Below, in pieces: positions 1,718 to 23,590 of a stretch of DNA of 64,000 bases. Origin of the DNA: Fastidiosipila sp. (GTDB taxonomy: Bacteria > Bacillota > Clostridia > Saccharofermentanales > DTU023); assembly GCA_012511175.1 (NCBI GenBank), contig JAAZGO010000010.1:69563-133562 (forward strand), given 5' to 3'. The notes below the pieces were generated by a model. That model saw only the letters and a program-made list of their open reading frames with translations, ran no database searches and had not been told where the DNA came from. Position 1 is the stretch's first letter, and every line of letters starts with the position of its first letter. Position numbers and translations under genes: made by a program.

Positions 1718-3177
1718 GGCAGATCCGTCTCTTCGCTGAACGCGCGGGCCAGGGCGGAAAGGAGCAGCCGTTCCTCCTCCCCGGAAAGGGTTCGCAAGTC
1801 GAACAGGAGGGTATCAAGTGTGGTGCGGCAGAGAATGGGAGGGTCAAAGGCCCGCAGGTTCTGTTCCAGTGAGGAGATTGACCGTGTGCCGGATCTGACC
1901 GCCAGGGCCCAGGAGTGCAAGGGTATTTCCGGCGCCGACCCTCCCCCCATGATGATCTCGGAAGGGATGGCTTCTGCCATGATTCCGTGCCCCGAGAGAG
2001 ACAGAGCGGCTTCTTCCGTTCGCTGGCGGAGCGAATCGTTGTTGTAAAGGACTGAAACAAGCAGGGGGATACGCTCTTTTGCCCGGTCGGGATCCAGGTA
2101 GAGTGCCAAGGTCGCCTCAAGGGCAGCAAGAGTCATCTTGTCACAGCGAAAGGCCCGCATCAAGGGGTGAGCGGTCATTTTCCCCACCAGGTCAGCCCGG
2201 CCCATGAGGATGCCGGCCTGAGGACCTCCCAGGAGCTTGTCACCGGAAAAACAGATCAGGTCCGCGCCGGAGGCAAGGGCTCCACGGACAGTCGGTTCAT
2301 CAGGAAGCAGGGCCGACAGTTCCTCTGAAACAAGGCCGCTCCCCAAGTCATAAATCAAGGGGATCCCATGGCAGCGGGCCAGCTGTGAGAGCTCCGTATC
2401 GCTGACGTCCTCGGTGAAACCTGAAATCCGGAAGTTGCTGCGGTGAACTTTTAGTAGGGCTGCGGTCGAATCACTGATGGCGCGCTCATAGTCGGCCAGG
2501 CGGGTTTTATTGGTGGTGCCAACCTCCCGGAGGATGGCGCCGCTCTCCTCCATGATTTCAGGAACCCTGAATTTCCCCCCGATTTCCACCAGTTCGCCGC
2601 GGGAAACAAGGACCTCCCGGCCCCGGCACAAAGCTGATAGGGCCAGCATGACGGCAGCCGCATTGTTGTTGACCACTGTTGCGGCCTCAACATCAAACAG
2701 GCGGCAGAGCAGGGTTTCCAGGGGAGCTGTTCGTTGACCGCGTCTGTTTTCTGTAAGATCAAACTCCAGCGAGGCATAACCTTCGCTGCAGCGCTGGACG
2801 GCTGCAAGGGCCTCTTTTGCGAGGGGTGCCCGGCCGAGATTGGTGTGGAGGATGGCACCGGTGGCGTTGATGACTTTCCTGATCCCGGGTTTTGATTCGG
2901 TTTCAATTTTCAAAAGAATGGCCCGGAGGAGGACCTCTTCGGACAGCAAGATACTCCCGGCTGCCTGGCAATCTGCCCCAGCTGCTTTTTCAATGTAGGC
3001 AGCGTCAGCAAGGGGATCATCCGCCTTTTTTGTGAGAAAATGGCGTGCGGCCTCGAGGATCCCGCGCACGGCTTCCCTTACCGGATGATAGCCGTTCGAT
3101 TCCCTTGCGGCATCAAGGCGTGAATCACGCAGCAGTTGATCTACTTTCGGCAGGTCACGTGGATTTTCAATGATCAT
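1714..3177 (-). CDS. selA: L-seryl-tRNA(Sec) selenium transferase SelA
   Basis: ORF 1714..3213; SelA-like throughout (INATGAILHTNLGRAP, KVHRSNF, FSGDKLLGGPQAG). Start trimmed to ATG 3177 (MIIENPRDLPKVDQLLRD), which is preceded by GTGAGGAGG RBS. Confidence 0.93.
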   Translation of the reverse strand: MIIENPRDLPKVDQLLRDSRLDAARESNGYHPVREAVRGILEAARHFLTKKADDPLADAAYIEKAAGADCQAAGSILLSEEVLLRAILLKIETESKPGIRKVINATGAILHTNLGRAPLAKEALAAVQRCSEGYASLEFDLTENRRGQRTAPLETLLCRLFDVEAATVVNNNAAAVMLALSALCRGREVLVSRGELVEIGGKFRVPEIMEESGAILREVGTTNKTRLADYERAISDSTAALLKVHRSNFRISGFTEDVSDTELSQLARCHGIPLIYDLGSGLVSEELSALLPDEPTVRGALASGADLICFSGDKLLGGPQAGILMGRADLVGKMTAHPLMRAFRCDKMTLAALEATLALYLDPDRAKERIPLLVSVLYNNDSLRQRTEEAALSLSGHGIMAEAIPSEIIMGGGSAPEIPLHSWALAVRSGTRSISSLEQNLRAFDPPILCRTTLDTLLFDLRTLSGEEERLLLSALARAFSEETDLP

Positions 3178-3211
3178 CCTTTTGGCCTCCTCACCTGAGA
3201 GTCTCAAGATC

Positions 3212-3333
3212 ATCTTACCAAAAGGGAGTGGTAGAATAGTGCCGAATCAGCGGCGATCGCCGCGGCAGACAGAAGGGATGCCGGTCATGCGAAACAAACT
3301 GAAAAAAATCGTCCGGTCCTGGGTTTCTTTCCT
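3212..3333. repeat. left copy of 122-bp direct repeat (duplicated upstream region + first codons of the ATP-grasp gene)
   Basis: Hand-aligned base by base with 15348-15469: identical except one position (3328 t vs 15464 a). Contains the same TGgTAGAAT -10-like element and the MPVMRNKLKKIVRSWVSF coding start, here running into a stop at 3361. Confidence 0.9.
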
Positions 3334-3373: not shown

Positions 3374-4457
3374 ATGTCTAAATCGCCCGCCATTCGGGCT
3401 GCGATCCTTCAGATGCGCAGCTTTTTTGACAGCCAGGGCTTGCCTTTGGCCTATCATCTTTTCCCCGGCAACTCAAGCGAAAAATTATCCTTGTATCCTC
3501 TCAAGAACCGGATCCGGGAAGATTACAACCGGAGCCGCGTTGTGGTCGCCGCCGACAAGAGAATGAATTGCGGGGACAACATCAACAAGCAGCTGGCCCG
3601 GCAACGGTTACATCCACAGCCAGTCCATCTGCGGAGCCGACCGGGAATTTCAGCAGCTTGTCCTGAACAAGGAGGCCACCTAAAGAGGGGGAGTCTGGCA
3701 AGGCCAAATCGAGGATCTATCCGAAAAAGACTACCTTAACCAACCGGCATAGGAAAAGGAAAACTCTCCGTCCATCAAAAGCAGGTGGTTTTTTACAGCC
3801 AGGACTACGCGGACAAAGCGGCCTATAAGCGGGCCCGCGTTCTTGCCAAAGCCAGGCGGCTTTTGAAGAGCCCACAACTTCTCATGTGAGCCATCAACAA
3901 AGGTGCCGCAAGCTACATCAAGAGCCTTGAGTAAATCGAGGATGGTGAAATAGTCGAACCCGAGACCCTGCTTTATCTTGAATAAGAAAAAGATTAAACA
4001 GGAGGCCTGGCAGGACGGCCACTACGCCATCGTGACAAGTGAGCTCGATCTTGACGACAGCGAAGCGATCCGACTTAACCACGATTTTAGGAAGATCGAG
4101 GAGATATTCAAGATCTCCAAGTCGGAATTGAGGACACGGCCAGTCCACGTGTCTTTGGAATCATATATTGAGGTGCATTTTCTGACCTGCTTTGTGGCGC
4201 TTGTCCTTTTAAGAACTCTGGAGCTCAAACTGAACCGGGCCGGACTCGAAGGCGCGGGTGGTCCGCAGGTTTTTCAAAGCTTCGGTTTGCCGGACTTGTT
4301 TCGAAAATTCACCTGCAGCCATGTCCCGGAAAACTGCTACACCTTCCATTTCACTGGCAACAACATCAAGGAGATCGAACAAGCACTAGAATTGGAACTT
4401 GGCCGCAAGCACAGGAAGCGAGGTGAGATCCGGTCCGTGATCGCCGATGCCGATTAG
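3374..4457 (+). pseudogene. IS1634/IS4-superfamily DDE transposase, 5'-truncated and frameshifted
   Basis: Two ORF fragments in different frames (3374-3739, 3978-4457). C-terminal part (DGHYAIVTSELDLDDSEAI...KIEEIFKISKSELRTRPVHV...HFLTCFVALVLLRTLE) matches the conserved C-terminus of IS1634-type transposases. The N-terminal half is missing. Confidence 0.8.
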
Positions 4458-4588: not shown

Positions 4589-4617
4589 TTGACATTTTTT
4601 TAGCATAAGTCTAGACT
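4589..4617 (+). promoter_or_regulatory. candidate sigma-A promoter for the aminotransferase-dhaKL operon
   Basis: TTGACA (4589-4594), 17-nt spacer, TAGACT (4612-4617), about 90 nt upstream of the ATG at 4708. Confidence 0.4.
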
Positions 4618-4707
4618 TAACGGCATAATTGCGGTATTCAGCAGAGAGCGTTGCTGCGGGTACTCGACATGACTAATGTTGTTACCAAACACAAAGAGGA
4701 GGTCACT

Positions 4708-6156
4708 ATGCCGAACATCGAGAATCTTAGGGGTGTTGCTTTCAAGCAAAGAGAGAAATTGCGGGTTTCAAAGGAGCAAATGCTCCAACGCATTGAGGAT
4801 TCCCCTTTCGGCCCAAAAGGGAAGGAATTGGCAAGGCAAGCCTTAGAGAATGAGTCCTACGGTGCGATGGGTTGGCTTTTATGGAGTGTGCCTCCCATCA
4901 TTGAATACGCCAAAGGCTCTGTCATCTATGACGTCGATGGCAAAGACTATATTGATTTGCTGTCCGGTTTTTCGGTAAGTCAGTTTGGTAACTGTCAAGA
5001 AGAATTGACCAAGGTTATTCAGGATCAAGCAACAAAGCTTACCCATTATTTTGATCTATTTCATCCTGAAAGAGTTAAGTTAGGCAAAAAGCTGAGAGAA
5101 CATTCAGGCATTAGCCAGGACACCAAGGTGGTTTTTGGCGTTACCGGATCAGACGGGATTGAGCTCGCCGTTAGAGCAGCTCGTTACTACACGGGCAGGC
5201 AGTATATCCTTGTGGCACATGGGGATTACCACGGGGTTACTTACGGAACAATGGGTTTGACAGGGAAAGGTGGAATGCAACCGTATTTTTATCCTGTAGC
5301 GCCCGATCCTCATGTTGGACAATTCTATTTCCCGCATGAATATCGTTCGAGGGATGAAGAATATTCAGGCTTTGGAATGGAATCGATCAGGGATCTCGAA
5401 AGAGCACTTGAAGGTAAGGAAACGCCTTGGGCGGACGGGTATAGTGGCATTTGCAATGTTGCGGCGATTCTTGTTGAGCCTTTCCAAAGTTCAGCGGGGT
5501 ATTATGTCCCTCCCAAAGCATATTTACAGGAACTTCGCAGAATATGTGACAAATTTGGTATTTTGCTGATTACAGACGAAATTCAAGCCGGACTTGGAAG
5601 GAGTGGAAAGCTTTGGGCCTACCAATATTCGGATATCGAGCCCGATATGATTGTTACTTCCAAGGCGCTGGGTGGTGGATTGCCCATTTCAGCAGTTATC
5701 GCTAAAAGCGAGATTCTCACAGAATGGGGTCCCGGTGCACACGTGTCAACGCAGGCTGGAAACGTGCTGGCATGTGCAGCTGGCAACTATGTAATGGATG
5801 TTGTGACGGATCCGGCGTTCCTGGAAGAAGTCAATCGCATCGGTGATCGTTTCTATGAAGGATGGAAGGTTCTACAGGATAAACATCCGAGCATTGGGTA
5901 TATCGATCATATGGGACTGTATCTATCAATTGAGTATGTCAAAGACAGAAAAACGAAGGAACCTGCTGCAGATTTCACAACTTTTGTCCGCGATGAGGGT
6001 GTTGCAGAAGGTCTCGCATTTGAAAAAGGTGGTTACTGGCACAACAGAACACAAATGATTCCAGCTTTAAACATGCCGGATGATGTTATGGACGAAGCTT
6101 TCAGGCGTTTTGACAGGGTGTTGACAAAGGGCGAGAAATTATTTGGCATCGGATAA
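4708..6156 (+). CDS. class III (omega-type) pyridoxal-phosphate aminotransferase
   Basis: ORF 4651..6156 trimmed to ATG 4708 behind AGAGGAGG. Class III motifs: DEIQAGLGRSGKLWA and the PLP lysine context MIVTSKALGGGLP. Confidence 0.85.
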   Translation: MPNIENLRGVAFKQREKLRVSKEQMLQRIEDSPFGPKGKELARQALENESYGAMGWLLWSVPPIIEYAKGSVIYDVDGKDYIDLLSGFSVSQFGNCQEELTKVIQDQATKLTHYFDLFHPERVKLGKKLREHSGISQDTKVVFGVTGSDGIELAVRAARYYTGRQYILVAHGDYHGVTYGTMGLTGKGGMQPYFYPVAPDPHVGQFYFPHEYRSRDEEYSGFGMESIRDLERALEGKETPWADGYSGICNVAAILVEPFQSSAGYYVPPKAYLQELRRICDKFGILLITDEIQAGLGRSGKLWAYQYSDIEPDMIVTSKALGGGLPISAVIAKSEILTEWGPGAHVSTQAGNVLACAAGNYVMDVVTDPAFLEEVNRIGDRFYEGWKVLQDKHPSIGYIDHMGLYLSIEYVKDRKTKEPAADFTTFVRDEGVAEGLAFEKGGYWHNRTQMIPALNMPDDVMDEAFRRFDRVLTKGEKLFGIG

Positions 6157-6172
6157 ATTTGAGGCATGTATA

Positions 6173-6203
6173 CTCGGCCAGTCACCAGTGGTGACTGGCC
6201 GAG
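6173..6203 (+). promoter_or_regulatory. intercistronic perfect stem-loop (14-bp stem, 3-nt loop)
   Basis: CTCGGCCAGTCACC-agt-GGTGACTGGCCGAG between aminotransferase stop (6156) and dhaK start (6241). No U-tract follows. Confidence 0.6.
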
Positions 6204-6240
6204 TGAATCTGGGGATTTGAGTGGAGGAGGTTTGATACGA

Positions 6241-7251
6241 ATGAAGAAATTTATGAATAAAGCTGAAGATTTTGTCGACGATATGCTAAAAGGCATATAT
6301 GCAGCACATCCAGATGAAGTGACCATGGTGGGGGATGATTTGCGATGCCTGGTGACCATGAGGCCAAAGGAGAATAAAGTTGCCATTGTAACGGGAGGTG
6401 GCTCAGGTCATCTGCCCCTATTTTTAGGCTATGTGGGTAATGGTCTTTTACACGGTTGTGCTGTTGGCGGGGTGTTCCAATCCCCGAGCGCCGAACAAGT
6501 TTTAGAGGTAACGAAGGCGGCGCATCAAGGCCAGGGTGTCCTGTACATCTATGGCAACTACACGGGCGATATCATAAATTTTGACATGGCTGGTGAAATG
6601 GCTGAAATGGAAGGTATCGTCACCAAAACTGTCCTCGGTGCAGACGATGTCGCGAGTGCGCCTGCGGGAGAGGAAGGTAAGCGGCGGGGGGTTGCTGGCA
6701 TATTCTTCGTCTATAAGGTGGCTGGAGCAAAAGCAAATGAAGGCGCTACACTCGATGAAGTGTATCGCGTTGCGGACAAGGCAAGTTCAAATGTAAGAAC
6801 CATGGGAGTAGCACTTACGCCCTGTATTGTTCCTGAAGTTGGGAAACCATCCTTTACTCTTGGTGATGATGAGATGGAAATTGGGATGGGCATCCATGGA
6901 GAACCCGGTGTCCGTCGGGGGAAACTCGAATCGGCCGACAAAGTTGTCAAGGAGATGCTGACCCCTATCATGGATGATTTGGGTCTTGAGTCTGGTGATG
7001 AGGTGTCGATATTGATGAATGGCCTGGGGGCTACCTGTAAAGAAGAATTGTACATCTGTTTTTCCAAGGTAGCAGAGATGCTCCGTGACCGTGGCATTAA
7101 ACAGCATTCTGTCTATGTCGGCGAGTATGCGACATCCATGGAAATGATGGGCTTCTCCATATCGGTCTTCAAGCTCGATGAAGAGCTAAAGAGCTTGCTG
7201 GTTAAGCCTGCCAACACTCCCTTCATTACCTTGGCTGGTCTCAAAGATTAG
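6241..7251 (+). CDS. dhaK: dihydroxyacetone kinase-family subunit DhaK (substrate-binding)
   Basis: ORF 6166..7251 trimmed to ATG 6241 (MKKFMNKAEDFVDDMLKG) behind GGAGGAGG. Dak1 hallmarks: VAIVTGGGSGHLPLF and YGNYTGDIINFDMA. Confidence 0.85.
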   Translation: MKKFMNKAEDFVDDMLKGIYAAHPDEVTMVGDDLRCLVTMRPKENKVAIVTGGGSGHLPLFLGYVGNGLLHGCAVGGVFQSPSAEQVLEVTKAAHQGQGVLYIYGNYTGDIINFDMAGEMAEMEGIVTKTVLGADDVASAPAGEEGKRRGVAGIFFVYKVAGAKANEGATLDEVYRVADKASSNVRTMGVALTPCIVPEVGKPSFTLGDDEMEIGMGIHGEPGVRRGKLESADKVVKEMLTPIMDDLGLESGDEVSILMNGLGATCKEELYICFSKVAEMLRDRGIKQHSVYVGEYATSMEMMGFSISVFKLDEELKSLLVKPANTPFITLAGLKD

Positions 7252-7271
7252 AAGGTGGGAGAAAAACAATA

Positions 7272-7907
7272 ATGAGAATTTTCACCAGGGATGATCTGAC
7301 GAGGGCCGTAGTCATCACAAGCACCTTGATGGATGAGAATAAGTTCAGACTCATCGAGCTGGACAGCCAGATCGGTGACGCTGATCTGGGGTTGACAATG
7401 AGCAAAGGTTTTGCGGCTGCAAAAACTTGCGCACTGGAGCTTGAGGATGATGACATCTCCACATCCTTCAAAAAGATTGGGCTTGCCATAGCGAAAGCCG
7501 CACCTTCAACGATGGGCTCTCTGATGGCAACTGCCTTTATTGGTGTAGGCAAGGAAATAGGTCAAAAGGAATACTTGGATTTTTCTGACGTGGGGCTCAT
7601 GTATATGTCGATGGCCAGGTCCATCCAGGAACGTGGCAAAGCGAAGGAAGGGGACAAAACGCTTCTTGACGTACTTTTTCCCGTTGCGCGTGCCGTACAA
7701 TCTTCCAGGAGCCAGGATATTTGCGAACTGATGGAAATTGCTCATAAGGTATCGAAGGAGAGTCTTGAACGTACGAAAAACTTAATGAGCCAGCACGGCA
7801 AGGCAGCTGTATTTCGAGAAAAAACCATTGGGCTGGAAGACCCGGGAGGAGCAGCAGCGGTCTTGTTAATTGAAGGATTCTACAGAGCTTGTATCGGAGA
7901 TGAATGA
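7272..7907 (+). CDS. dhaL: dihydroxyacetone kinase-family subunit DhaL (nucleotide-binding, Dak2 domain)
   Basis: 211 aa. Dak2 motifs: LDSQIGDADLGLTM and GDKTLLDVLFP. Confidence 0.85.
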   Translation: MRIFTRDDLTRAVVITSTLMDENKFRLIELDSQIGDADLGLTMSKGFAAAKTCALELEDDDISTSFKKIGLAIAKAAPSTMGSLMATAFIGVGKEIGQKEYLDFSDVGLMYMSMARSIQERGKAKEGDKTLLDVLFPVARAVQSSRSQDICELMEIAHKVSKESLERTKNLMSQHGKAAVFREKTIGLEDPGGAAAVLLIEGFYRACIGDE

Positions 7908-8389
7908 TTATGATTATTAAGGCACAGGAATTGACGGTTGAATCATTCGCCCCTTATGGATCGTTTATAAATCCAATGAACGGATATGAGGGAGATGAAA
8001 CAATCGAGTTCACTCCCGATCGCATGATGTATCAAGTTGGCGGGCGAATTGGAAGCATGTCCAGTATCCGCATCAAGTGGCGGCCCATGGAGTTTGGAGT
8101 AACTGAATATCACGATGAATGCGAAGAAGTGTTTGGCGGTTTTGGCTGTGAGGTGGTCTTCCACGTTGGCCTTGTGTCCAGAACAAACCAACCGATTCCG
8201 GAAAGCTTTGCAGTTTTTCGGCTTCCAGCGGGGTGGTATGCACGCGTAAAACGCCGGGTGCTTCATCATGCCGGGTTCGTTGTAGGTAAAGATGACGTGG
8301 CTGCAGGAGTGGTTCTGCTGTCCCCTTCTGCCTACACGATTGACTGTCACGTTATTGAGCTGGAACAGCCGATTGGTATTGAAGTTTAA
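7904..8389 (+). CDS. ureidoglycolate lyase (AllA)-family cupin-like protein, function unknown here
   Basis: 161 aa. N-terminus QELTVESFAPYGSFINP resembles the AllA/ureidoglycolate lyase family signature. Start overlaps dhaL stop (ATGA), suggesting translational coupling. Confidence 0.6.
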   Translation: MIMIIKAQELTVESFAPYGSFINPMNGYEGDETIEFTPDRMMYQVGGRIGSMSSIRIKWRPMEFGVTEYHDECEEVFGGFGCEVVFHVGLVSRTNQPIPESFAVFRLPAGWYARVKRRVLHHAGFVVGKDDVAAGVVLLSPSAYTIDCHVIELEQPIGIEV

Positions 8390-8514
8390 ACAATATTATT
8401 TTTTTCTTGAGTTGCTGAGAATTAATCGTTATGGGCCGGTTTTCGGGACCGGAAACTGAAATAGTGGTTTACGCTCTAAGGGCGTAATAGAAGAAAGGCA
8501 CAAGGGAGGTTTCT

Positions 8515-9573
8515 ATGAAGAAGTCTAGGCTGCAAATATTCATGGTGTTGATCGTGACACTCATATTTGCGATGGGGTTGGTATTAACTGGATGCAGCAT
8601 GGAAGGAGATAAATCTGGTAACGCTCCTCCTGCTGCGGAAGACACTAAGAAGCCCGAATCTCCTTCAGGTGGAGAAAGTGGGGAAGGGAAGAAGATCGGT
8701 TTTTCGATTGCGATGCTAGCCGGCAGCCCCTTCTGGCAGATCATTTCAGATGAACTGGAAAGAGGATTCAAAGAATTGGGCTATGAGTTCGTTGTTCTCG
8801 ATGCTCAGGGAGATGCGGCAAAGCAGGCTTCAGACGTTGAAGATCTGATTGCGCAAAAGGTCGATATAATTCTTGTAAATCCGTATGACAGTGATGCGAT
8901 TGTGCCGGTCACACTGTCTGCACGAGATGCCGGTATCCCGGTGATGGCGGTGGATATCCCTGTGGCTGAGGCCGGATACAGCATAGCAACTTGTATTTGT
9001 GACAACGTCATGCTTGGGTACCAATTGGGCGAGTATGCGGCGGATAAGTTTAATACGCCTGAGGTTAAAGTGGTCGTAATCAGTGGCTATCCGAACGGTA
9101 TCGACAGTCGTCAGAGGCGTCACGGTTTCATTGAAGGCTTCCACGCAAAACAGTTGGAGAAATTTGCGCAAACGGGCTTGAGGATTGTTCACCATGGTTG
9201 GGGTGATTATGCACGTGAACCTGCAAATAAAACCATGGAAGACGCCATCACACGGACAAACGGTGACTTTGACATCGTATACTGCGAAAACGATGATATG
9301 GCCATCGGTGCCCTCCGCGCAATGGAAAGCGCCAACATCACAGGCAAGATGATTTTGGGTGTTGATGGTCTTAAAGAGATGTACGAACTGATACGTGACG
9401 GCTATACAACCGCTACAGGACGAAATTCACCGGTTGAGTTGGCAGCGGTATCCGTCCAAGCTACCCATGATTATCTGAACGGCAAGGAAATTCCTGAAAT
9501 CATTTTTACGACGCCGACCGTTGTGGAGAAGAAAAACATAGATGAATTCTACGATCCTGATTCAATCTTTTAG
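8515..9573 (+). CDS. sugar/polyol ABC transporter substrate-binding lipoprotein (ribose-type, PBP family 1)
   Basis: Signal peptide with lipobox LTGC, a Pro/Glu/Ser linker, then an RbsB-like body (GFSIAMLAGSPFW, DIILVNPYDSDA, VDGLKE). GGGAGG RBS. Confidence 0.85.
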   Translation: MKKSRLQIFMVLIVTLIFAMGLVLTGCSMEGDKSGNAPPAAEDTKKPESPSGGESGEGKKIGFSIAMLAGSPFWQIISDELERGFKELGYEFVVLDAQGDAAKQASDVEDLIAQKVDIILVNPYDSDAIVPVTLSARDAGIPVMAVDIPVAEAGYSIATCICDNVMLGYQLGEYAADKFNTPEVKVVVISGYPNGIDSRQRRHGFIEGFHAKQLEKFAQTGLRIVHHGWGDYAREPANKTMEDAITRTNGDFDIVYCENDDMAIGALRAMESANITGKMILGVDGLKEMYELIRDGYTTATGRNSPVELAAVSVQATHDYLNGKEIPEIIFTTPTVVEKKNIDEFYDPDSIF

Positions 9574-9600
9574 AACCAGGTGAGTAGAAACGTTTATGTG

Positions 9601-9637
9601 ATGGGCGAGACGATGATGTCATCATCGTTTCGCCCAT
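9601..9637 (+). promoter_or_regulatory. long stem-loop just after the binding-protein gene
   Basis: ATGGGCGAGACGATGATG / CATCATCGTTTCGCCCAT is near-perfectly complementary (one G-U). No clear U-tract follows. It resembles the mRNA-stabilising hairpins common after ABC binding-protein genes. Confidence 0.55.
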
Positions 9638-9907
9638 ATCATGATGTTAGTTCGTGAGATCATCGGTTGAAACACATCGCATCCGTTTCTGCTCTCGATT
9701 CAGCCGGGTCGAATGGGGTTCTTCCGTTTGAAGCGTTCAAATGGATCTCGCATGAGGGTATTCTTAATTGCATAGCGGCGTTCTTCTGAAAGAGAAGCAC
9801 TGACGGGGTCCCATCTATTTGGCATCACCTCGATTGTTAACCAACTGATATTGACTTCGAGGAGAGACAACAAAAGGAAAATTTTTGGTAAATGGAGTGA
9901 GTTTAGA

Positions 9908-11455
9908 ATGGGTGCTTTTAATCCAATTGTTGAAAAAACTGAAACAACAGAAACCCACGAAACTGACAACGTTATTCTTCGGGTCACGGGCTTGGTTAAA
10001 GATTTTCCGGGTGTTAGAGCGTTGGATAATGTCTCTTTTTCCCTGCGCCGGGGCGAGATCCACGGTTTGGTGGGTGAAAACGGAGCGGGCAAAACTACGT
10101 TATTGAAGATTCTCTCTGGCGTTTATGCTGCTGACAATGGTGAAATTGAATTGGAGGGGTCAAAAGTTCATCTGAAAAATCCGATCGATGCACAGAGCAA
10201 AGGTATTTGTATGGAATACCAGGAGAAAACTCTGTTCCCCAACTTAAGCGTTGCCGAAAATATCTGTGTAGGCAATTTAGGTTTGTATTCTGGCAGCCGT
10301 TCAATGGTTTCCTGGAAAAAAATCCACACAATCGCAAATGAAGTTCTCAATTGGTTGAATTTCGACATCGATACAACCTTGAATATTCGAGATTTGTCAC
10401 CTCAGTTGCAGCAAATAGTTCAAATAGCGCGGGCGATTGCACTCAAGGGAAAGATCATCATCTTGGACGAACCTACAGCTGCTATTTCTTTTAGCGAAGT
10501 CGACAATCTATTTGCTACGCTGAGAAGGTTAAAAGATGAAGGCTACTCGATCATCTATGTTTCTCACCATCTGAAAGAGGTCTTCCGAATAACTGACAGG
10601 GTTACGATCCTGAAGGATGGTCAGGGTGTCGGAACCTTCGAAACGGCAGCTCTTGACGAAAAAGCGATGACTCGTCTGATGATTGGGAGAGACATTATCC
10701 GCGAACGCCAAAGCAGAGACTTCTCAACAAGTGAGGTGGTATTTGAAACCAAATCGCTTACCACAGCGGATGAATCGATTTCTGACGTTTCAGTTAAAGT
10801 TCGAAAAGGAGAAATCCTGGGGATTGCAGGATTGTTAGGAAGTGGCAAAGACATCTTAGCCAGGGTCATCGCGGGATCAACGCCAATAAAATCGGGAGAA
10901 GTAATTCTAAACGGGGAAAGTTTTGTTCCAAAACGTCCAAAACAAGTGATCAACAAAGGCATAACAGTATTGCCGGCAGAAAGAACTCTTGAGGGCTTGA
11001 TCTTAAGGCAGTCGCTGAATTTTAACATGACACTTTCGTCTTTCAAGAGATTTTCCAAATTCGGCATCATGAATGCAAGAAAGGATTTCAGATTGGCCGA
11101 GAAAGCTGCCTCCGATGTCAATCTAAAATACGTCACACTGAGACAGCAGGCACTGTCTTTGTCAGGAGGCAACCAGCAAAGAGTCATGATTGCGCGTGCC
11201 CTTTTGACGAATGCAAAGATTATCGTTTTCAATGAACCCACGCAAGGTGTTGATGTGGGCGCAAAGCAGGAGATCCACAAACTGATCCGTTCCTATGTTT
11301 CACGGGGAGGGTCCGTGATTATCATCTCATCGGAACTTCCTGAGTTGCTGAGTACAAGTGATAACATTGCCGTTATGAGCAGGGGGAGAATCGTCGCCAA
11401 TTACACTGGCGACGAGGCTTCGGAGGAAACATTGCTTAAGCAAATGATTGGCTGA
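9908..11455 (+). CDS. sugar ABC transporter ATP-binding protein (duplicated ATPase, RbsA/MglA type)
   Basis: ORF 9851..11455 trimmed to ATG 9908. Two nucleotide-binding domains: Walker A GENGAGKTT, signature LSGGNQQRV and Walker B IIILDEPT/IVFNEPT. Confidence 0.9.
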   Translation: MGAFNPIVEKTETTETHETDNVILRVTGLVKDFPGVRALDNVSFSLRRGEIHGLVGENGAGKTTLLKILSGVYAADNGEIELEGSKVHLKNPIDAQSKGICMEYQEKTLFPNLSVAENICVGNLGLYSGSRSMVSWKKIHTIANEVLNWLNFDIDTTLNIRDLSPQLQQIVQIARAIALKGKIIILDEPTAAISFSEVDNLFATLRRLKDEGYSIIYVSHHLKEVFRITDRVTILKDGQGVGTFETAALDEKAMTRLMIGRDIIRERQSRDFSTSEVVFETKSLTTADESISDVSVKVRKGEILGIAGLLGSGKDILARVIAGSTPIKSGEVILNGESFVPKRPKQVINKGITVLPAERTLEGLILRQSLNFNMTLSSFKRFSKFGIMNARKDFRLAEKAASDVNLKYVTLRQQALSLSGGNQQRVMIARALLTNAKIIVFNEPTQGVDVGAKQEIHKLIRSYVSRGGSVIIISSELPELLSTSDNIAVMSRGRIVANYTGDEASEETLLKQMIG

Positions 11456-11510
11456 GGCATGAAGTGATGAACGTATCACATCTAAGAATGGAATTTGGAG
11501 ATAAAAGATT

Positions 11511-12488
11511 ATGGTGAAAAGTAATGCCGGCAGAACACTGGATAGGCAGAGACTTGGCCACCTTGCCAAAGAATATTTCCTGGTTATCGTTGTTGCCTTG
11601 TTAATAGTTGTATTCAGTTTTTTGAACCAAAATTTTTTGACAGGTGCCAATATTCAAAATATGTTAAGGCAAGCGGCAGCAAATGTGATCATCAGTATCG
11701 GGATGCTGGCTGTTGTTTTAACAGGGGGCATTGATCTTTCTGTCGGGGCAACCGCTGGTTTAGCTGGGGTGTTGGTGGCGGGCTTTATTAGAGACGGCAT
11801 GGGTGCTCTCAGCGCTTCCTTATTGGTACTTGTTATCGGAATTCTGGTTGGTACGTTCACCGGATTTTTGGTTGTGTACATGGGTCTGGCACCTTACATA
11901 GCCTCGATGTCCATGATGCTGATTGTGACAGGAATAAAACTCCTTTACAGTCACTCACTTTCAATTTCGATAGACATGAGCCAGAGTGGTTTTTTGATGG
12001 TCGGCCGTGGGAATTTTGCAAGCATCCCTATACCCATTTGGATGATGTTTGTTATGACTTTGATATTCCAATTCGTTATGTCGAAAACGACTTATGGTAG
12101 AAGTCTCTACGCTCTCGGCGGCAATCCGGAAGCGGCTTACCTTGCGGGTATCAATAGCAAATTTATGACGATGTCCGTCTACGTAATAAGTGGGTTTTGC
12201 AGCTTTGTTGCAGGGATTATGCTTGCATCAAGGCTGGCATCTGGTTCCCCTTCGACGGGTACGGGTTTCGATACAAACGCGATTGCATCAGTCGTTATCG
12301 GTGGAGGAAGTCTTGCCGGAGGACGGGGGAAGCCCATGCTGGTTCTGTTTGGCGCGATGGTGATCGCAATGCTGAGTAATTTCCTTAACCTGATGGGTGT
12401 GCAGAATTACATTCAGAGAATAATCACGGGCGGAATCATTATTCTCGCTGTATTCATCTCGGAACGGACTGGCACCAAGAAGCGATAA
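11511..12488 (+). CDS. sugar ABC transporter permease (RbsC/BPD type, single permease)
   Basis: 325 aa, about 9-10 hydrophobic spans, with an RbsC-like GGIDLSVGA motif. Confidence 0.88.
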   Translation: MVKSNAGRTLDRQRLGHLAKEYFLVIVVALLIVVFSFLNQNFLTGANIQNMLRQAAANVIISIGMLAVVLTGGIDLSVGATAGLAGVLVAGFIRDGMGALSASLLVLVIGILVGTFTGFLVVYMGLAPYIASMSMMLIVTGIKLLYSHSLSISIDMSQSGFLMVGRGNFASIPIPIWMMFVMTLIFQFVMSKTTYGRSLYALGGNPEAAYLAGINSKFMTMSVYVISGFCSFVAGIMLASRLASGSPSTGTGFDTNAIASVVIGGGSLAGGRGKPMLVLFGAMVIAMLSNFLNLMGVQNYIQRIITGGIIILAVFISERTGTKKR

Positions 12489-12524
12489 ACCTTGTCTCAC
12501 CGAACGGAAGAATGTGAGGGAAAA

Positions 12525-13598
12525 ATGGAAATGATCTTCGGAGCCCCCCAGTTTTACGTGCAGGGACCGGGCATTATTGCAAAGACAGGGAAATATCTGA
12601 CAGACCTCCAGCTTGATGGGAAACTCTTGCTCATGATTGATGTGGGGGTGAAAGAGGTGGTTAAGCCAATGTTGGTTTCTATCGAGGAGGCATCGATAGA
12701 CTACGATGTGCTGGACTTTGCTGATCAATACACCCTGAAAAAAATCGCATTAATCGCCGATGAGTCCAAACACAAGCAGTATTGCGCTGTTGTGGGCGTT
12801 GGTGGTGGCAAGCCGATAGATGCTTCCAAACGGGTTGGTTGGTCCCTGGGCATTCCTTTCTTATCGGTTCCTACGAGTATCGCCACAGATGCTGCAACGA
12901 GTAGAACATCGGTCGCCTATACAGATGATGGCGAGTTGGTTGAGGACAAGACGATTTTCAACCCTGCTGGAATTTTCGTCGATTCCGCCATTATTGTTCG
13001 GGCACCCATTCATCTATTCGGAGCTGGGATGGCCGATGCGCTATCCAAGAGATATGAATACAAACTGTCGTTAGCCTGTGGATTCCCAAATTGGTATGAC
13101 GCCTCTTCAGCCTATTTTATTGACGCAATTTCCAAAGAAATGCACGAACTGCTTTTGCGTAATGGTAGATATTTGAAGGAATGTTTTAGGGAGGGCGTGC
13201 TTAATGAGACAGTTGAACGGAGTATCACCGCCATGCTGCTCATGAGTCGTTTGGTGTGGGATTCAGGTGGTTTGCGGGGAGCTCATGACTTATTCGAGGA
13301 ATTCAATGATGCAGGTTATGGTAAGGATCACATGCATGGTGAAATAGTTGGCTATTTCGATCTTGTCCAACTATTGGTAGAACAGTACCCAGACAATGAG
13401 TTTTACGAACTCTACACTCTTTACCGTGATTTGGGTATCCCACTCAAAATTAGCGACTTTGGATTTCCTATCGGGGACGCTGATCAACTCGATGAGTTGA
13501 CGACGCGCTTTTCCAAGAAATGTGGTGAGTTCAACTGGCATCCAGGTGATGACGCGTTTAAAGATGCTTTACTTAAGCTCGAAAAGATGCAACTTTAA
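12525..13598 (+). CDS. iron-containing alcohol dehydrogenase, glycerol dehydrogenase (GldA)-like
   Basis: ORF 12492..13598 trimmed to ATG 12525 behind GTGAGGG. Contains VGVGGGKPIDASK (NAD-binding loop) and PTSIATDAATS, typical of the GldA/Fe-ADH family. Confidence 0.8.
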   Translation: MEMIFGAPQFYVQGPGIIAKTGKYLTDLQLDGKLLLMIDVGVKEVVKPMLVSIEEASIDYDVLDFADQYTLKKIALIADESKHKQYCAVVGVGGGKPIDASKRVGWSLGIPFLSVPTSIATDAATSRTSVAYTDDGELVEDKTIFNPAGIFVDSAIIVRAPIHLFGAGMADALSKRYEYKLSLACGFPNWYDASSAYFIDAISKEMHELLLRNGRYLKECFREGVLNETVERSITAMLLMSRLVWDSGGLRGAHDLFEEFNDAGYGKDHMHGEIVGYFDLVQLLVEQYPDNEFYELYTLYRDLGIPLKISDFGFPIGDADQLDELTTRFSKKCGEFNWHPGDDAFKDALLKLEKMQL

Positions 13599-13641
13599 AA
13601 AAGCAGACATATGATAATCGTTTGATATCGGAGATAATTCT

Positions 13642-14427
13642 ATGGAAAATGCAATCTGGAATCTATTCGATTTGACTGATAAAAACGCTGTCGTGACAGG
13701 GGCATCCGGTGGAATTGGTTATGCCTGCGCTATTGGCCTGGCCCAAGCGGGCGCAAATGTTGTTGCCCACTATAATACCAACAAAAAAACTGCGGATAAA
13801 CTTGTAGCAGAGATTAGAAAAATGGGAAAAGAAGCCTTCGCGGTGCAAGCAGATGTTTCCAATTACGAAGACGTTAACCGCATGGCAAAAGATATCGATG
13901 AGATGTGGGGAAAGGTTGACATATTGTTCAATAATGCCGGAATTGGGCTAACCGTCGATCCCGAAAAGAGCACAAAGGAAGAGTGGTTGAAGGTAATCGA
14001 CACGAATCTTAATGGCGTATTCTACTGCGCACAAGCTTTCGGTAAATTGATGATCCGGGATGGAGGTGGAGCCATTATCAATATGGGTTCCATGTCCGCA
14101 GAAATTATCAATAGACCCGAAGAGGTCTCCTACAGCACTTCAAAAGCCGGCGTCCACCTGATGACTAAAGGGCTTGCGGCATGCTGGGCAAAATATAAAA
14201 TACGTGTCAATGCTATAGCTCCGGGGTATATTGCAACTGAGATGTCACTTCCCATGATGCGCAGTGAGCCTGACTGGGTCAAAACGAATTGGACCGATTG
14301 GACGCCGCAACGACGGATTGCTGAACCTGAAGAACTGGTGGGCATGGTTGTTTATCTCGCGTCCGAAGCGTCGAGTTTCGTCACGGGTTCTTGTTTGATC
14401 ATCGACGGGGGATTCACGGTGTATTAA
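13642..14427 (+). CDS. SDR-family oxidoreductase (gluconate-5-dehydrogenase/3-oxoacyl reductase-like)
   Basis: 261 aa with TGASGGIGYA, NNAG and the YSTSKAG catalytic motif. Confidence 0.88.
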   Translation: MENAIWNLFDLTDKNAVVTGASGGIGYACAIGLAQAGANVVAHYNTNKKTADKLVAEIRKMGKEAFAVQADVSNYEDVNRMAKDIDEMWGKVDILFNNAGIGLTVDPEKSTKEEWLKVIDTNLNGVFYCAQAFGKLMIRDGGGAIINMGSMSAEIINRPEEVSYSTSKAGVHLMTKGLAACWAKYKIRVNAIAPGYIATEMSLPMMRSEPDWVKTNWTDWTPQRRIAEPEELVGMVVYLASEASSFVTGSCLIIDGGFTVY

Positions 14428-14511: not shown

Positions 14512-15347
14512 TAAGTTTTCAAAATAAATCCGTGACGCGTCAACAAGACTGACAAAAGCGACAAGTTGATTGCCTGTCTCAATTTGGATAAAGCAGCATA
14601 AGTTTCGCGCAAATGAATTAGGAGGACATGACTCCCTCTACTCACTTGGAAAAATTGGTTTTGGAAAAAACAAACCAAGGAGAAAAAGGAACCAAGTCCG
14701 AAAAAAATATTCAGTTGAACGAAGGAATCATCAGAGAAGAGCTGGGCGAGATGGTGCATCAAAGTGTTGAAGATACTTTGAATACATTACCGGAAGAAGA
14801 GCCGACTGACTGACCAACGTCAAATGCAACAAAAGAATGGTCATACGAAAGATTCTTGACAGTACTCTTGCATCCATGAGAGATTTCGCTCTCCGAAGGC
14901 AGTCATGGACGCCATTTGTTACCATAGAACAACTGGGGAGGAGCACTGAAACTGCCAACAAACCTGAACATACTACAGGGAACAGCTGTGCAGAGGGATT
15001 GGCAGGTCATATCCTGGGCACCAGGTTCAAAATCCGTGAGAGCTGGTTCTGTCAGGGAGCGGCCGTGATGGTCGTTTCACGCGCCTTCGTGACGAAAGCA
15101 GGGGAGTTGACATCACTGCTGATCGAAAAGACACAAAAATTGGCTGTAGCCAGTATCCAGGAGCTTTCGGCAAATTTTCGGGAATACAGGTGATGCGGGT
15201 CGCCCACGATAGCCCGAAGGACCAACAAACGGGAGACACCGCCCTACCGTTTACGAAAAGTGAACGCCGTTAACAGCTTGGGGAGATTCCATTGATTCTT
15301 ACTCTGAGCTACAACAACTTGACACGGCCCCAGTTGCAAAAGTCAGG
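14512..15347 (+). mobile_element. decayed IS256-family (mutator-type) insertion sequence with internal deletions
   Basis: Fragments across frames resemble IS256-type transposase N-terminal parts (VEDTLNTLPEEE, ERKDS, and an AICYHRTTGEEH block in the position of the usual AIIERYRRRE block), plus a possible C-terminal remnant. The two ends look like imperfect inverted repeats: 14516 AGTTTTCAAA...CCGTGACGCGTCAA versus the reverse complement of 15315-15345, ACTTTTGCAA...CCGTGTCAAG. Only about 830 bp remain, against more than 1.3 kb for intact family members. Confidence 0.7.
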
Positions 15348-15469
15348 ATCTTACCAAAAGGGAGTGGTAGAATAGTGCCGAATCAGCGGCGATCGCCGCG
15401 GCAGACAGAAGGGATGCCGGTCATGCGAAACAAACTGAAAAAAATCGTCCGGTCCTGGGTTTCATTCCT
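15348..15469. repeat. right copy of 122-bp direct repeat (native 5' region of the ATP-grasp gene)
   Basis: Identical to 3212-3333 except one base. It starts immediately after the IS256-like right end. Confidence 0.9.
15365..15373 (+). promoter_or_regulatory. extended -10-like element (TGgTAGAAT) for the ATP-grasp gene, duplicated at 3229-3237
   Basis: TG-n-TAGAAT lies about 50 nt upstream of ATG 15423. The -35 position falls on the repeat boundary and is weak in both copies. Confidence 0.3.
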
Positions 15470-16502
15470 GAATAAACGGGCGGATGCTTCCATGACCCGC
15501 GCCATGATCTGGTCGATCCGGTCGGGCAGCAGAAAGGAATTCAAGCACCGTCAGTGCAGCATAAGCCTTGAAGAAAAAAAGGCCATCCAATCGTACTGGG
15601 GCCGCTACACGAAACAAAATCGCCCTTTCTTTCAGGCTTTGTACGCTTGCATGCATGGCACCTTCGATGTCAGATACCTGCCTGACGACCTCTATTTGAC
15701 CCGCATGCTCCGGCATTTAAACGACCGGGAATACAGCGTCCTGACCAATAAATGCCTTCAGCCGCTTTTATTTGACTGCCGGCAGCCGGAAACGGTTTTC
15801 ATGCGGATTAATGGATCCTACTGCGATGCGGCCTACCGGCCCATCAGCAGGGAGGAGGCAATCGAACTTTTTCTTGAGAGCGGCAAGGCGGTTGTCAAGC
15901 CGGCTGTGCGTACGCACAGCGGCAGGGGCATTCAGTTTCATGCCGCCCGGAGCGCGGAGGAAGTCTCAGAATTTCTGGAGCACTGCTTTGGGCAAGTTCC
16001 AAGCTACATCGTACAAAAGGTGGTGAAGCAACACGCCGGCCTTGCAGCCATCCATGAGCCTTCAGTCAACTGCCTGCGTGTCATGACACTCTTGATTGAC
16101 GGCCGGGCCGTTGCTCTTTCAACAGTTTTGAAGATGGGCGCCGGCGGAAGCCAGCTGGACAACCTGGGATTCGGCGGCATCGTCTGCGGTGTCAGGGAAG
16201 ATGGCACCCTGAGGGAAGTGGCCTTTTCGGCTAATGGCGACCGCTTCTACCAACACCCTCAGGGCTTTGACTTCAGCGGCTATCATGTCCCCTCCTATGA
16301 GGCGGTCAAAAAATTGGCTGTGAGCATGGCGGAACGCGTTCCCTACACGCGGCTGATTGCCTGGGATATCGCCGTGGCCGAGGACGGTGAACCGGTCCTG
16401 ATCGAATACAACGATATCGGGGAGCTGGGATTTATGCAATATGCCAACGGTCCCCTCTTCGGTGACTATACAGACAGGATTCTGTCAGAAATCTTTCTTT
16501 AG
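15423..16502 (+). CDS. ATP-grasp family protein (sugar-transfer-associated ATP-grasp type)
   Basis: ORF 15375..16502. ATG 15423 is preferred (AGAAGGG sits 9 nt upstream). The C-terminal IAWDIAVAEDGEPVLIEYN is typical of this ATP-grasp subfamily. Start choice is uncertain (15375, 15414 or 15423). Confidence 0.75.
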   Translation: MRNKLKKIVRSWVSFLNKRADASMTRAMIWSIRSGSRKEFKHRQCSISLEEKKAIQSYWGRYTKQNRPFFQALYACMHGTFDVRYLPDDLYLTRMLRHLNDREYSVLTNKCLQPLLFDCRQPETVFMRINGSYCDAAYRPISREEAIELFLESGKAVVKPAVRTHSGRGIQFHAARSAEEVSEFLEHCFGQVPSYIVQKVVKQHAGLAAIHEPSVNCLRVMTLLIDGRAVALSTVLKMGAGGSQLDNLGFGGIVCGVREDGTLREVAFSANGDRFYQHPQGFDFSGYHVPSYEAVKKLAVSMAERVPYTRLIAWDIAVAEDGEPVLIEYNDIGELGFMQYANGPLFGDYTDRILSEIFL

Positions 16503-23450: not shown

Positions 23451-23590
23451 ATGCAGGATTAGAACCTGCGTTACAGGCCCGGCAACTTCAAATTCTGTTC
23501 AAATTAAAGCATTAGGCTGGCCGTAAATGGGGACTCGTCATGAGGAGTCAGTGTTGCCCGATGACTAATGGATAGATGGAGGATAGGGCA

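Follow-up and report, generated by a model that had tools for sequence, protein, structure and literature searches.

Genes at the locus

The locus discussed here lies in a 64-kb window of a metagenome-assembled genome (MAG) of Fastidiosipila sp. (Bacillota); the window, below, is that whole stretch of DNA. At 4708-14427 it carries nine co-directional genes on the plus strand. They encode a class-III pyridoxal phosphate (PLP) aminotransferase (AT), the two subunits of a DhaK/DhaL kinase (DhaKL), a small cupin, an ATP-binding cassette (ABC) importer with its substrate-binding protein (SBP), a GldA-like dehydrogenase and a short-chain dehydrogenase/reductase (SDR). An earlier reading of the letters alone (the sequence-only reading) had listed these nine genes, and all of them are present where it placed them and on the plus strand. 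They are as follows.

4708-6156, plus strand: AT, class-III PLP aminotransferase of a sugar-operon family (PF00202, 290.7 bits, E 2e-86; AGGAGG ribosome-binding site before the ATG)
6241-7251, plus strand: DhaK, substrate-binding subunit, GHLPLF subfamily (PF02733, 403 bits, E 1e-120)
7272-7907, plus strand: DhaL, nucleotide-binding subunit (PF02734, 136 bits, E 1.5e-39; DxxxGDxDxG motif in the translation)
7904-8389, plus strand: 161-aa metal cupin of the AllA/DUF4867 superfamily (no Pfam match above cut-off)
8515-9573, plus strand: SBP, a lipoprotein, CUT2/RbsB-like (Peripla_BP_4)
9911-11455, plus strand: ABC ATPase with two nucleotide-binding domains (two ABC_tran domains; alternative start TTG at 9851)
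11511-12488, plus strand: ABC permease (BPD_transp_2)
12525-13598, plus strand: GldA-family polyol dehydrogenase, accessory (Fe-ADH families)
13642-14427, plus strand: SDR oxidoreductase, accessory (adh_short families)

An aminotransferase-kinase core

Relatives of the AT number in the hundreds at 55-87% identity. From genomes and metagenomes 114 AT loci were gathered and compared by tblastn and clustering of open reading frames (ORFs), and these reduce to 72 non-redundant loci. DhaK is encoded within the retrieved flanks at 21 of the 33 loci whose AT is at least 62.5% identical to that of the window, and at only 2 of the 39 below that value. Where there is a DhaK near the AT it is almost always accompanied by DhaL, and the loci above 62.5% identity that show no DhaK are mostly contigs too short to judge. 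Altogether the AT-DhaK-DhaL core recurs at 23 non-redundant loci, in MAGs labelled Spirochaetota, Clostridia/Bacillota and Actinomycetota, and in a neighbour-joining tree the ATs linked to DhaKL fall into one almost unbroken block.

How much of the remaining gene set travels with this core? Locus L007 has all nine genes, with proteins 56-74% identical to those of the window. Loci L036-L038 have eight of the nine in a permuted order (in L036, AT-SBP-ATPase-permease-DhaK-DhaL-GldA-SDR). The AT-DhaKL pairing is kept with four types of transporter (CUT2, CUT1, NMT1/SsuA-type ABC and TRAP), and each locus with long flanks carries at least one of the following: a cupin, an Fe-ADH, the GldA-like protein with the SDR, or two SDRs. 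The sole invariant core among the DhaK-linked loci is AT-DhaK-DhaL. The co-occurrence of this AT clade with dhaKL, which the sequence-only reading had put forward as a check, is borne out by the counts for close and distant relatives. That reading had also allowed that the genes might not occur together outside this strain; they do, with the core at 23 loci and the full set at L007. These neighbourhoods argue that AT and DhaKL are functionally coupled and that the coupling is real.

Just upstream of the AT cluster of L003 (1-8671) there is another set of genes, for a transaldolase/FSA, ABC proteins, an Amidohydro_2 protein, an SDR and a split transketolase. We take this set to resemble branched-pentose (apiose-type) catabolic clusters.

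Sister subclades of the AT (55-62% identity; L020, L022, L023, L029, L031, L087-L096 and others) are found without DhaKL. Their neighbours are PfkB/FGGY kinases, M20 peptidases, gamma-glutamyltranspeptidase, TIM-barrel isomerases, HAD phosphatases and CUT1/CUT2 importers. Some of these ATs come from marine metagenomes and two from Virgibacillus isolates. Perhaps the sister subclades are a series of parallel amine-sugar pathways, the substrates of which may be N-acylated or gamma-glutamylated.

The aminotransferase family

The AT is an Aminotran_3 member, and so of class III, with the Schiff-base lysine (K319) and the aspartate at the pyridine nitrogen (D290). Both residues are invariant in 38 family members and align with those of PuuE and isoleucine 2-epimerase; R447 is family-invariant as well. 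None of the 69 NCBIfam matches comes near its cut-off, the best having 304 bits against 552. The nearest solved structures (phmmer E 1e-66 to 1e-59) are those of isoleucine 2-epimerase, archaeal amino-acid racemases and PuuE.

In databases the family is annotated as "4-aminobutyrate aminotransferase-like". In GabT, the arginine of the FHGRT-type site holds the distal carboxylate of the substrate. When the AT is aligned to PuuE and the racemases, V177 stands at the arginine of the PuuE "FHGRT". EPIQGEGG is replaced by EPFQSSAG (QGEGG becomes QSSAG), and the position of the C-terminal arginine is taken by Q449, with the invariant R447 two residues earlier. The aspartate of DEIQ is kept, as D290. 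The scores and the set of arginine, QGEGG glutamate and C-terminal arginine thus all place the AT outside the gamma-aminobutyrate (GABA), ornithine and acetylornithine aminotransferases. The sequence-only reading had relied on the enzyme not belonging to a housekeeping clade, and by the same scores and replaced carboxylate-binding residues it lies outside the GABA, ornithine and other housekeeping clades. With V177 at the GabT-type arginine position, the substrate would be one without an omega-carboxylate. The AT appears to represent a distinct family for which an omega-carboxylated amine is an unlikely substrate.

One clue to the co-substrate is alanine dehydrogenase. A homolog is found at 11 of the 31 DhaK-linked loci listed, and that of L003 is above the alanine dehydrogenase equivalog cut-off (492.6 against 391.85). 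Because this partner is recurrent, the AT is likely to be an amine:pyruvate transaminase with a recycled co-substrate, and this is the activity proposed here.

A clue to the amine itself is the company kept by the family as a whole. Its neighbours are LacI/GntR regulators, CUT1/CUT2 importers, SDRs, xylose-isomerase-like TIM barrels and HAD phosphatases. There is one of three kinases (DhaKL, PfkB or FGGY), and often an M20 peptidase or gamma-glutamyltranspeptidase. Such sugar-type neighbours support amino-polyol or amino-sugar substrates, so in its general form the idea of this substrate class, put forward in the sequence-only reading, fits the wider family.

A rival view is that the operon serves a hydroxy-amino acid (for example serine, isoserine or a 4-hydroxy amino acid). 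In that case the AT would form a hydroxy-keto acid, e.g., hydroxypyruvate, and DhaKL would phosphorylate this keto acid directly or the aldehyde left after an aldolase split. The similarity of the AT to alpha-amino-acid racemases and epimerases is in keeping with this scenario, as are the TRAP transporter of L002 and the RraA-like/HpcH aldolases and 2-hydroxyacid dehydrogenases of spirochaete loci. However, most loci, including that in the window, have neutral-sugar-type importers and no aldolase, the regulators of the relatives are of the LacI/GntR sugar type, and the residues that hold a carboxylate in GabT-type enzymes are replaced in the AT. A hydroxy-amino acid is therefore judged very improbable as the substrate.

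It could also be asked whether the AT is a transaminase at all. Class-III phospho-lyases exist, and the systems that pair one with an amino-alcohol kinase are a precedent for a PLP-dependent lyase, racemase or epimerase whose reaction with an amino compound would precede or follow that of the kinase. The best matches in the Protein Data Bank (PDB), to isoleucine 2-epimerase and the archaeal racemases, would suit such an activity. So would the unusual QSSAG and R447-x-Q449 motifs, and the phospho-lyase PbfA is in the list of NCBIfam matches (below cut-off). However, a genuine alanine dehydrogenase is recurrently adjacent, which is sensible only if there is an alanine/pyruvate cycle. In addition, DhaK keeps the carbonyl-binding histidine, so phosphorylation of an amino-alcohol is unlikely. 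Of the explanations weighed here, this one is given the least credence.

A DhaM-less kinase subfamily

The two kinase subunits belong to the Dak1/Dak2 superfamily, with GGGSGH, NYTGD and GIHGEPG aligning with DhaK of E. coli and L. lactis. Dak1 and Dak2 are on separate ORFs with a gap of 20 nt, and so this is not the fused single-chain type of Citrobacter and eukaryotes. Nor do the subunits reach the equivalog cut-offs of the type dependent on the phosphotransferase system (PTS): DhaK has 381.6 against 406.25 for TIGR02363 and DhaL has 126.3 against 138.3 for TIGR02365. The best NCBIfam match of DhaK is to the fused-family model PRK14479, which is also below its cut-off (436.6 bits against 492).

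In structures of E. coli DhaK, H56, D109 and H218 bind and activate the carbonyl substrate. Equivalents of all three are conserved in each of the 19 DhaK proteins examined from AT-carrying loci. The same 19 have GGGSGH(L/K)P(L/A)F in place of the canonical GGGSGHEPxH after the catalytic histidine, and before the catalytic aspartate the AT-linked proteins mostly have YGNY (with I/F variants), whereas the canonical sequence is IKNY. GGGSGHLPLF is found in 119 of the 120 top DhaK homologs from a database search, and so it marks a large subfamily. Its members are annotated in databases as "PEP-dependent DhaK" (PEP, phosphoenolpyruvate).

No EIIA-Man, HPr or PEP-utilising domain was found in the island ORFs or in 10 related loci annotated with Pfam. 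This agrees with the observation in the sequence-only reading that the island has no DhaM or other PTS phosphotransfer protein, as there is no match to a PTS/EIIA family among the island ORFs. The same reading had held that a split DhaK/DhaL normally needs DhaM. That rule cannot be transferred to the GHLPLF subfamily, which is large and has no DhaM in the 10 annotated loci.

Four GHLPLF DhaK loci without an AT were picked solely for their long contigs. Their DhaK-DhaL genes have the following neighbours.

L115: GH95, AraA-like isomerase and DeoR (same assembly as AT locus L036)
L116: SusC/SusD and a sugar permease (Cyclobacteriaceae MAG)
L117: LacI, TctABC, DHDPS-type aldolase, beta-hydroxyacid dehydrogenase and PF04115/DUF4867 cupin (Rectinema)
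L118: a short Peripla_BP_4 protein

The assembly that contains L115 (GCA_900198705.1) has two paralogous GHLPLF DhaK/DhaL pairs, one in the AT operon L036 and the other between the GH95 glycosidase and the AraA-like isomerase. In L117, from a Rectinema subterraneum MAG, the order at 4873-12074 is LacI-TctC-DHDPS-TctB-TctA-DhaK-DhaL-beta-hydroxyacid dehydrogenase-cupin. This cluster may be a sugar-acid route, e.g., of the threonate type, that releases free triose. A route from L-threonate through dihydroxyacetone to DhaK has been discussed (PMC12994016).

An AT-specific clade of DhaK was expected. It was rejected when a tree showed that DhaKs from loci without an AT are interspersed among the AT-linked ones.

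Taken from these sequences, the indication is that GHLPLF DhaKL is a generic, DhaM-less plug-in module, and that the absence of DhaM is a subfamily trait, not an oddity of the island. One kinase type serves many upstream enzymes, which suggests that its substrate is probably a common small hydroxy-carbonyl, with free dihydroxyacetone and glyceraldehyde as candidates. The interspersed tree points the same way, to a common small intermediate, and so supports a C3 product of the AT. L117 fits as well, as its aldolase or a threonate-3-dehydrogenase-like enzyme would yield free triose. ATP would be the natural choice of phosphoryl donor.

The alternative is a larger substrate. From a C4-C6 amino-polyol or amino-sugar the AT would produce erythrulose or another ketose or aldose, and DhaKL would be an erythrulose-type kinase, with further conversion of the sugar phosphate left to the cupin, the dehydrogenases and host enzymes. 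In its favour, the best NCBIfam match of DhaK is to a fused "dihydroxyacetone kinase family" and not to the PTS-type DhaK, and the residues beside the catalytic histidine are altered. The PfkB/FGGY kinases, TIM-barrel isomerases and HAD phosphatases of the sister AT subclades are typical of C5/C6 sugars, and some DhaKL-linked loci have a TIM-barrel protein or transketolase. CUT2 binding proteins, moreover, usually require several hydroxyls. However, no tetrulose- or pentulose-phosphate isomerase, epimerase or aldolase is conserved with the core, and the window and L002 have none. In addition, the occurrence of the same DhaK subfamily in unrelated sugar loci argues for a common small intermediate. 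A C4-C6 substrate is thus considered rather unlikely.

Importer and dehydrogenases

With a Peripla_BP_4 protein, a tandem-domain ATPase and a BPD_transp_2 permease, the transporter is an importer of the general CUT2 type. It does not belong with RbsABC. The SBP has 135 bits against a cut-off of 337 for the RbsB equivalog, and the positions that align with R90, N13 and Q235, presumably the ribose contacts of RbsB, are changed. These differences indicate that ribose is not what the SBP binds. A common signature joins the SBP of the window to the AT-linked SBPs of L003, L007 and L036, which suggests that they have one ligand. Inspection of the binding-site residues for that ligand gave no mark of an amine site.

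The GldA-like protein is far from the GldA score (192.4 bits against 336 for PRK09423). In an alignment to 1jpu it has the equivalents of D173, H256 and H274, which we take to be the zinc ligands of GldA in B. stearothermophilus numbering. Of the nine proteins the SDR is the most conserved (72-74% identical to its counterparts in L007 and L036), and it has a sub-threshold match to the GolD/DthD family. The two dehydrogenases occur together only in the window, L007 and L036-L038, or 3 of the 23 non-redundant DhaK-linked loci, and so are accessories and not the core route to a ketose. The sequence-only reading had the dehydrogenases and the AT each supplying a ketose to DhaKL. The AT half of this proposal is upheld by the linkage to DhaK, but the dehydrogenase half does not hold as a core function.

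Could the operon nonetheless be an ordinary system for a polyol such as glycerol or a tetritol, with import, oxidation by the GldA-like protein or the SDR, phosphorylation by DhaKL, and the AT as a passenger or with an unrelated nitrogen function? GldA plus DhaK is the classic oxidative branch of glycerol metabolism, the SBP is nearest, among solved structures, to CUT2 binding proteins of the sugar/polyol type, and the SDR is better conserved than any other protein of the set. However, the pair of dehydrogenases is at 3 of the 23 loci whereas the AT is at all of them (by construction), adjacency of AT and DhaK is kept with four transporter types, and alanine dehydrogenase travels with the cluster. 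The low score of the GldA-like protein is a further argument against it. An ordinary polyol system is considered improbable.

The cupin

The cupin misses the cut-offs of both Pfam families of its superfamily, PF04115 (13.3 bits against 23) and DUF4867, although some homologs and the spirochaete version do match PF04115 or PF16161. Nine residues are invariant in 30 homologs (R60, E68, H70, E74, E75, H87, H121, H122 and D147). An AlphaFold model built from the homolog alignment (pLDDT 95) has as its top Foldseek matches in the PDB the ureidoglycolate hydrolase/lyase structures 2bdr, 1xsq and 1yqc (probability 1.00, TM-score ~0.55; E 8e-6 to 5e-5 for 2bdr and 1xsq). The next-best folds are CA_C3497, the DUF4867 protein 9gyy (E 1.6e-4) and cupin-type sugar-phosphate isomerases. 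H70, E74 and H121 have the same spacing as His99, Glu103 and His150, which are the metal ligands of DUF4867. The label "AllA-like" given to this protein by the sequence-only reading is therefore right for the fold but not for membership of PF04115 by sequence. A DUF4867 structure has been solved, without a known activity, and the family is linked to ketose and kinase gene neighbourhoods (PMC11968277).

The cupin gene follows DhaKL both with an AT (in the window, L003-L007, L009 and L018) and without one (L117), which places the cupin with the kinase in the pathway. Where it is missing, the locus tends to have an Fe-ADH, the GldA-like protein with the SDR, or two SDRs. A guess is that the cupin and the dehydrogenases are alternative ways to interconvert the aldose, ketose and polyol forms of free triose.

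A proposed pathway

What might the nine genes do together? The chance that the operon is a self-contained catabolic unit for a small amino-polyol, with triose phosphate as its product, seems to us about even. The first step would be import of the compound by the lipoprotein binding protein and the CUT2 transporter, as is usual for these families. Judging by its genomic context, the AT would then pass the amino group to pyruvate, to give L-alanine and a hydroxy-aldehyde or hydroxy-ketone. Alanine dehydrogenase, which is adjacent in many relatives and would be a host enzyme in the window strain, would regenerate pyruvate and free ammonium. DhaK, which has the catalytic residues of its family, would hold the carbonyl compound by its conserved histidine, and DhaL would phosphorylate it, most likely with ATP and without DhaM, so that triose phosphate enters glycolysis. 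More speculatively, the cupin, and elsewhere one or two dehydrogenases, might interconvert the aldose, ketose and polyol forms of free triose in side reactions. In the window, the GldA-like protein and the SDR would serve triose interconversion and redox balance.

The general scheme, from amine to hydroxy-carbonyl to DhaKL, is rather probable. The identity of the substrate as a C3 compound is far more tentative. Only AT and DhaKL are invariant, and this core has no conserved sugar-phosphate isomerase or aldolase beside it, which makes a C3 amino-diol the most economical guess: 3-amino-1,2-propanediol would give glyceraldehyde and serinol would give dihydroxyacetone. Serinol, the example chosen in the sequence-only reading, is one plausible substrate among several.

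Several points weigh against the proposed pathway. The sequence covered in this genome is 64 kb, and DhaM may be encoded elsewhere. The changes near the catalytic histidine of DhaK (E to L/K, H to F, IKNY to YGNY) may mean a substrate other than dihydroxyacetone or glyceraldehyde. Among solved structures the AT is closest to alpha-amino-acid racemases and epimerases, and its C-terminal arginine is displaced by two residues, so that the type of reaction is not certain. Spirochaete loci add RraA-like/HpcH aldolases, a transketolase and 2-hydroxyacid dehydrogenases, which could mean a longer substrate or extra steps, and the importer of L002 is of the TRAP type, for which acids are the usual cargo. 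In the literature searched there is no record of how abundant C3 amino-diols naturally are in digesters and sediments. Finally, the role given to the cupin is a guess, and no activity is known for the DUF4867 protein of solved structure (PMC11968277).

A wider reading joins three ideas, and is doubtful as a whole. First, the AT family, with its motifs EPFQSSAGYY, YHGVT and HNRxQ, might be a new family of sugar-amine:pyruvate transaminases that give amino-polyols and amino-sugars entry to glycolysis, their carbonyl product being handed to one of three interchangeable kinases (DhaM-less DhaKL, PfkB or FGGY). Second, GHLPLF DhaKL and the AllA-like cupin might form an ATP-driven unit for the salvage of free triose, in which the cupin would be an isomerase of free glyceraldehyde and dihydroxyacetone. 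Third, amino-polyols might be an overlooked natural nutrient pool, as a source of carbon and nitrogen for bacteria of anaerobic digesters, sediment, gut and sea.

Full-text literature searches found no published description of an AT-DhaKL pathway, in agreement with the sequence-only reading, which knew of no described pathway with this combination. As far as these searches show, the AT-DhaKL pairing, the AT family and the DhaM-less GHLPLF subfamily are all undescribed. Every part comes from a known superfamily, and the scheme as a whole is akin to taurine degradation (Tpa plus Ald) and to the DhaK branch of glycerol metabolism.

If the pathway is real, bacteria labelled Spirochaetota, Clostridia/Bacillota and Actinomycetota take both carbon and nitrogen from small amino-polyols, which are off the usual maps of microbial nutrition, by a route that needs just a transporter, one transaminase and one kinase. 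Two large groups of mis-annotated proteins, the AT family and the GHLPLF DhaK subfamily, gain a handle. The orphan AllA/DUF4867 cupins gain a testable context, and a role as glyceraldehyde-dihydroxyacetone isomerase, if true, would be the first function for the DUF4867 type. There is applied interest in transaminases for serinol or aminopropanediol, and these might find use in biocatalysis.

The island and its regulation

The following features bear on how the operon came to be here and how it is expressed.

3212-3333, no strand: left 122-nt direct repeat, 99% identical to the right copy at a spacing of 12136 nt; copies the promoter-proximal 5' end of an ATP-grasp gene
3374-4457, plus strand: remnants of decayed mobile elements in two ORFs, 3374-3739 and 3978-4457 (DDE_Tnp_1 below cut-off, E 0.023)
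4589-4629, plus strand: candidate operon promoter, TTGACA-17-TAGACT overlapping TTAGCA-18-CATAAT (a match to consensus; shuffling predicts no fewer such sites for the region)
6172-6204, no strand: perfect 16+16-nt GC-rich palindrome in the spacer from AT stop to DhaK start, ACTCGGCCAGTCACCA G TGGTGACTGGCCGAGT, with no T-run after it
9601-9637, plus strand: 17-bp perfect stem-loop after the SBP gene, with no T-run after it
15348-15469, no strand: right 122-nt direct repeat, overlapping the start of the intact ATP-grasp gene (15375-16502)

The GC content is 0.43-0.49 within the island and 0.55-0.62 around it, and the two repeats bracket an insert of 12.1 kb. With the weak transposase remnant, this makes the label "island cargo" used in the sequence-only reading a fair one, and it supports horizontal acquisition of the nine-gene operon on a 12.1-kb island. 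The repeats are far too long for a target duplication made by a transposase, which suggests that a circular element entered by Campbell-type or site-specific integration. An observation that does not fit this pattern is that no integrase is encoded by the island ORFs. The insert lies between selA (1714-3213, minus strand) and the ATP-grasp gene, which is followed by selD, and selA and selD are thereby separated. Proteins identical to those of the island are found in four NCBI assemblies with consecutive accession numbers. Four NCBI MAGs have the 159-aa ORF of the left-end remnant region, which has no Pfam match, at the corresponding position. A 61-aa ORF just inside the right end of the island (14628-14813) was judged by eye to be the N-terminus of an IS256/mutator-type transposase; this was unconfirmed, with no Pfam match, and was set aside.

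Two observations concern genes outside the island. selD (16503-17546, minus strand) has an in-frame TGA at codon 17 (MSDQEIRLTQLTSAGG*GAKVGPG...), the usual selenocysteine position, and is for this reason shown truncated at 17486 in the ORF list. At 23576-27706 there is a gene for a 1376-aa protein with the source name isopeptide-forming fimbrial (pilin-like) protein, unrelated to the catabolic island.

No transcription-factor family is matched by the island ORFs, and a tblastn search of the 64-kb window with GntR and LacI regulators from related loci gave no match and no remnant. The relatives do have such regulators. A GntR gene is divergent from or upstream of the AT gene in L004, L007 and L037, and LacI is by the AT in spirochaete and actinobacterial loci. 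The "no regulator" of the sequence-only reading is thus true of the window copy, but it is not a general trait of these clusters. As transposase debris occupies the position of the relatives' GntR gene, the missing regulator looks like a loss that accompanied transfer. With no regulator, the window operon is probably expressed constitutively or under the control of a host factor. When the sequences preceding the AT gene in the window, L007, L037 and L004 were aligned, no conserved operator emerged.

The sequence-only reading had also divided the genes into two operons, which cannot be demonstrated: the 125-nt gap between the cupin and SBP genes (8390-8514) has no terminator-like site and no significant fold, and gene order is shuffled in the relatives. 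Since the same genes are found reordered there, the set behaves as one functional unit. The palindrome at 6172-6204 is present only in the window and an identical contig (L001) and is absent from the other related loci. Its role could be that of an operator, a site of RNA processing or a REP-like element. The gap between the SBP and ATPase genes is unusually long (337 nt) and folds at z = -2.78, with 0 of 100 shuffles folding as well. Its stem-loop is probably a stabiliser or an attenuator, by which the amount of binding protein relative to transporter would be set. An Rfam scan of the whole window found no riboswitch or other RNA.

Comparison with known systems

The taurine degradation module has Tpa (taurine:pyruvate aminotransferase), Ald and a TauABC or TRAP importer, with the Fe-ADH sulfoacetaldehyde reductase SarD in anaerobes. 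The AT loci are similar in that a class-III AT is found with a bona fide alanine dehydrogenase, so that amine and pyruvate would give aldehyde and alanine. Some of them also have an SsuA/TauA-like NMT1 binding protein or a TRAP importer, and in spirochaete loci an Fe-ADH adjoins the AT. However, the carbonyl product at the AT loci would go to DhaK/DhaL, the regulators and most importers are of the sugar type, and the AT is below the cut-offs of the taurine and beta-alanine transaminase models.

The dha regulon of E. coli and L. lactis combines the glycerol dehydrogenase GldA/DhaD with the PTS-dependent DhaK-DhaL-DhaM. The island shares with it a split Dak1/Dak2 with the conserved His, Asp and His, and a GldA-family enzyme with intact zinc ligands. 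In contrast, the island has no DhaM or DhaR, both kinase subunits are below the equivalog cut-offs, GHEPxH and IKNY are replaced by GHLPLF and YGNY, and the conserved partner is the AT and not GldA.

Tetritol catabolism in Mycobacterium smegmatis (erythritol, D-/L-threitol) relies on CUT2 binding proteins, SDR/polyol dehydrogenases and erythrulose kinases of the Dak family. Here, too, a CUT2 importer, an SDR and a Dak-family kinase are in one cluster, and the SDR of the island has its sub-threshold match to GolD/DthD. Unlike the island operon, the M. smegmatis system has kinases that are fused single chains, needs tetrulose-phosphate isomerases and has no aminotransferase.

In the aminopropanol/aminoacetone utilisation microcompartment of mycobacteria, an amino-alcohol kinase works with a class-III phospho-lyase. 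As proposed for the island, a kinase and a class-III PLP enzyme degrade a small amino-alcohol. However, the amino-alcohol systems phosphorylate first and then eliminate, their kinase is of another family and they have no need of alanine dehydrogenase, whereas the DhaK of the island operon would require a carbonyl group.

The cupin of the window resembles the AllA/DUF4867 cupins (SftX/SqvB of sulfoglycolysis; PMC11968277) in fold and in the spacing of its metal ligands. It differs in size, at 161 aa against ~220 aa for DUF4867, and ureidoglycolate is implausible as its substrate.

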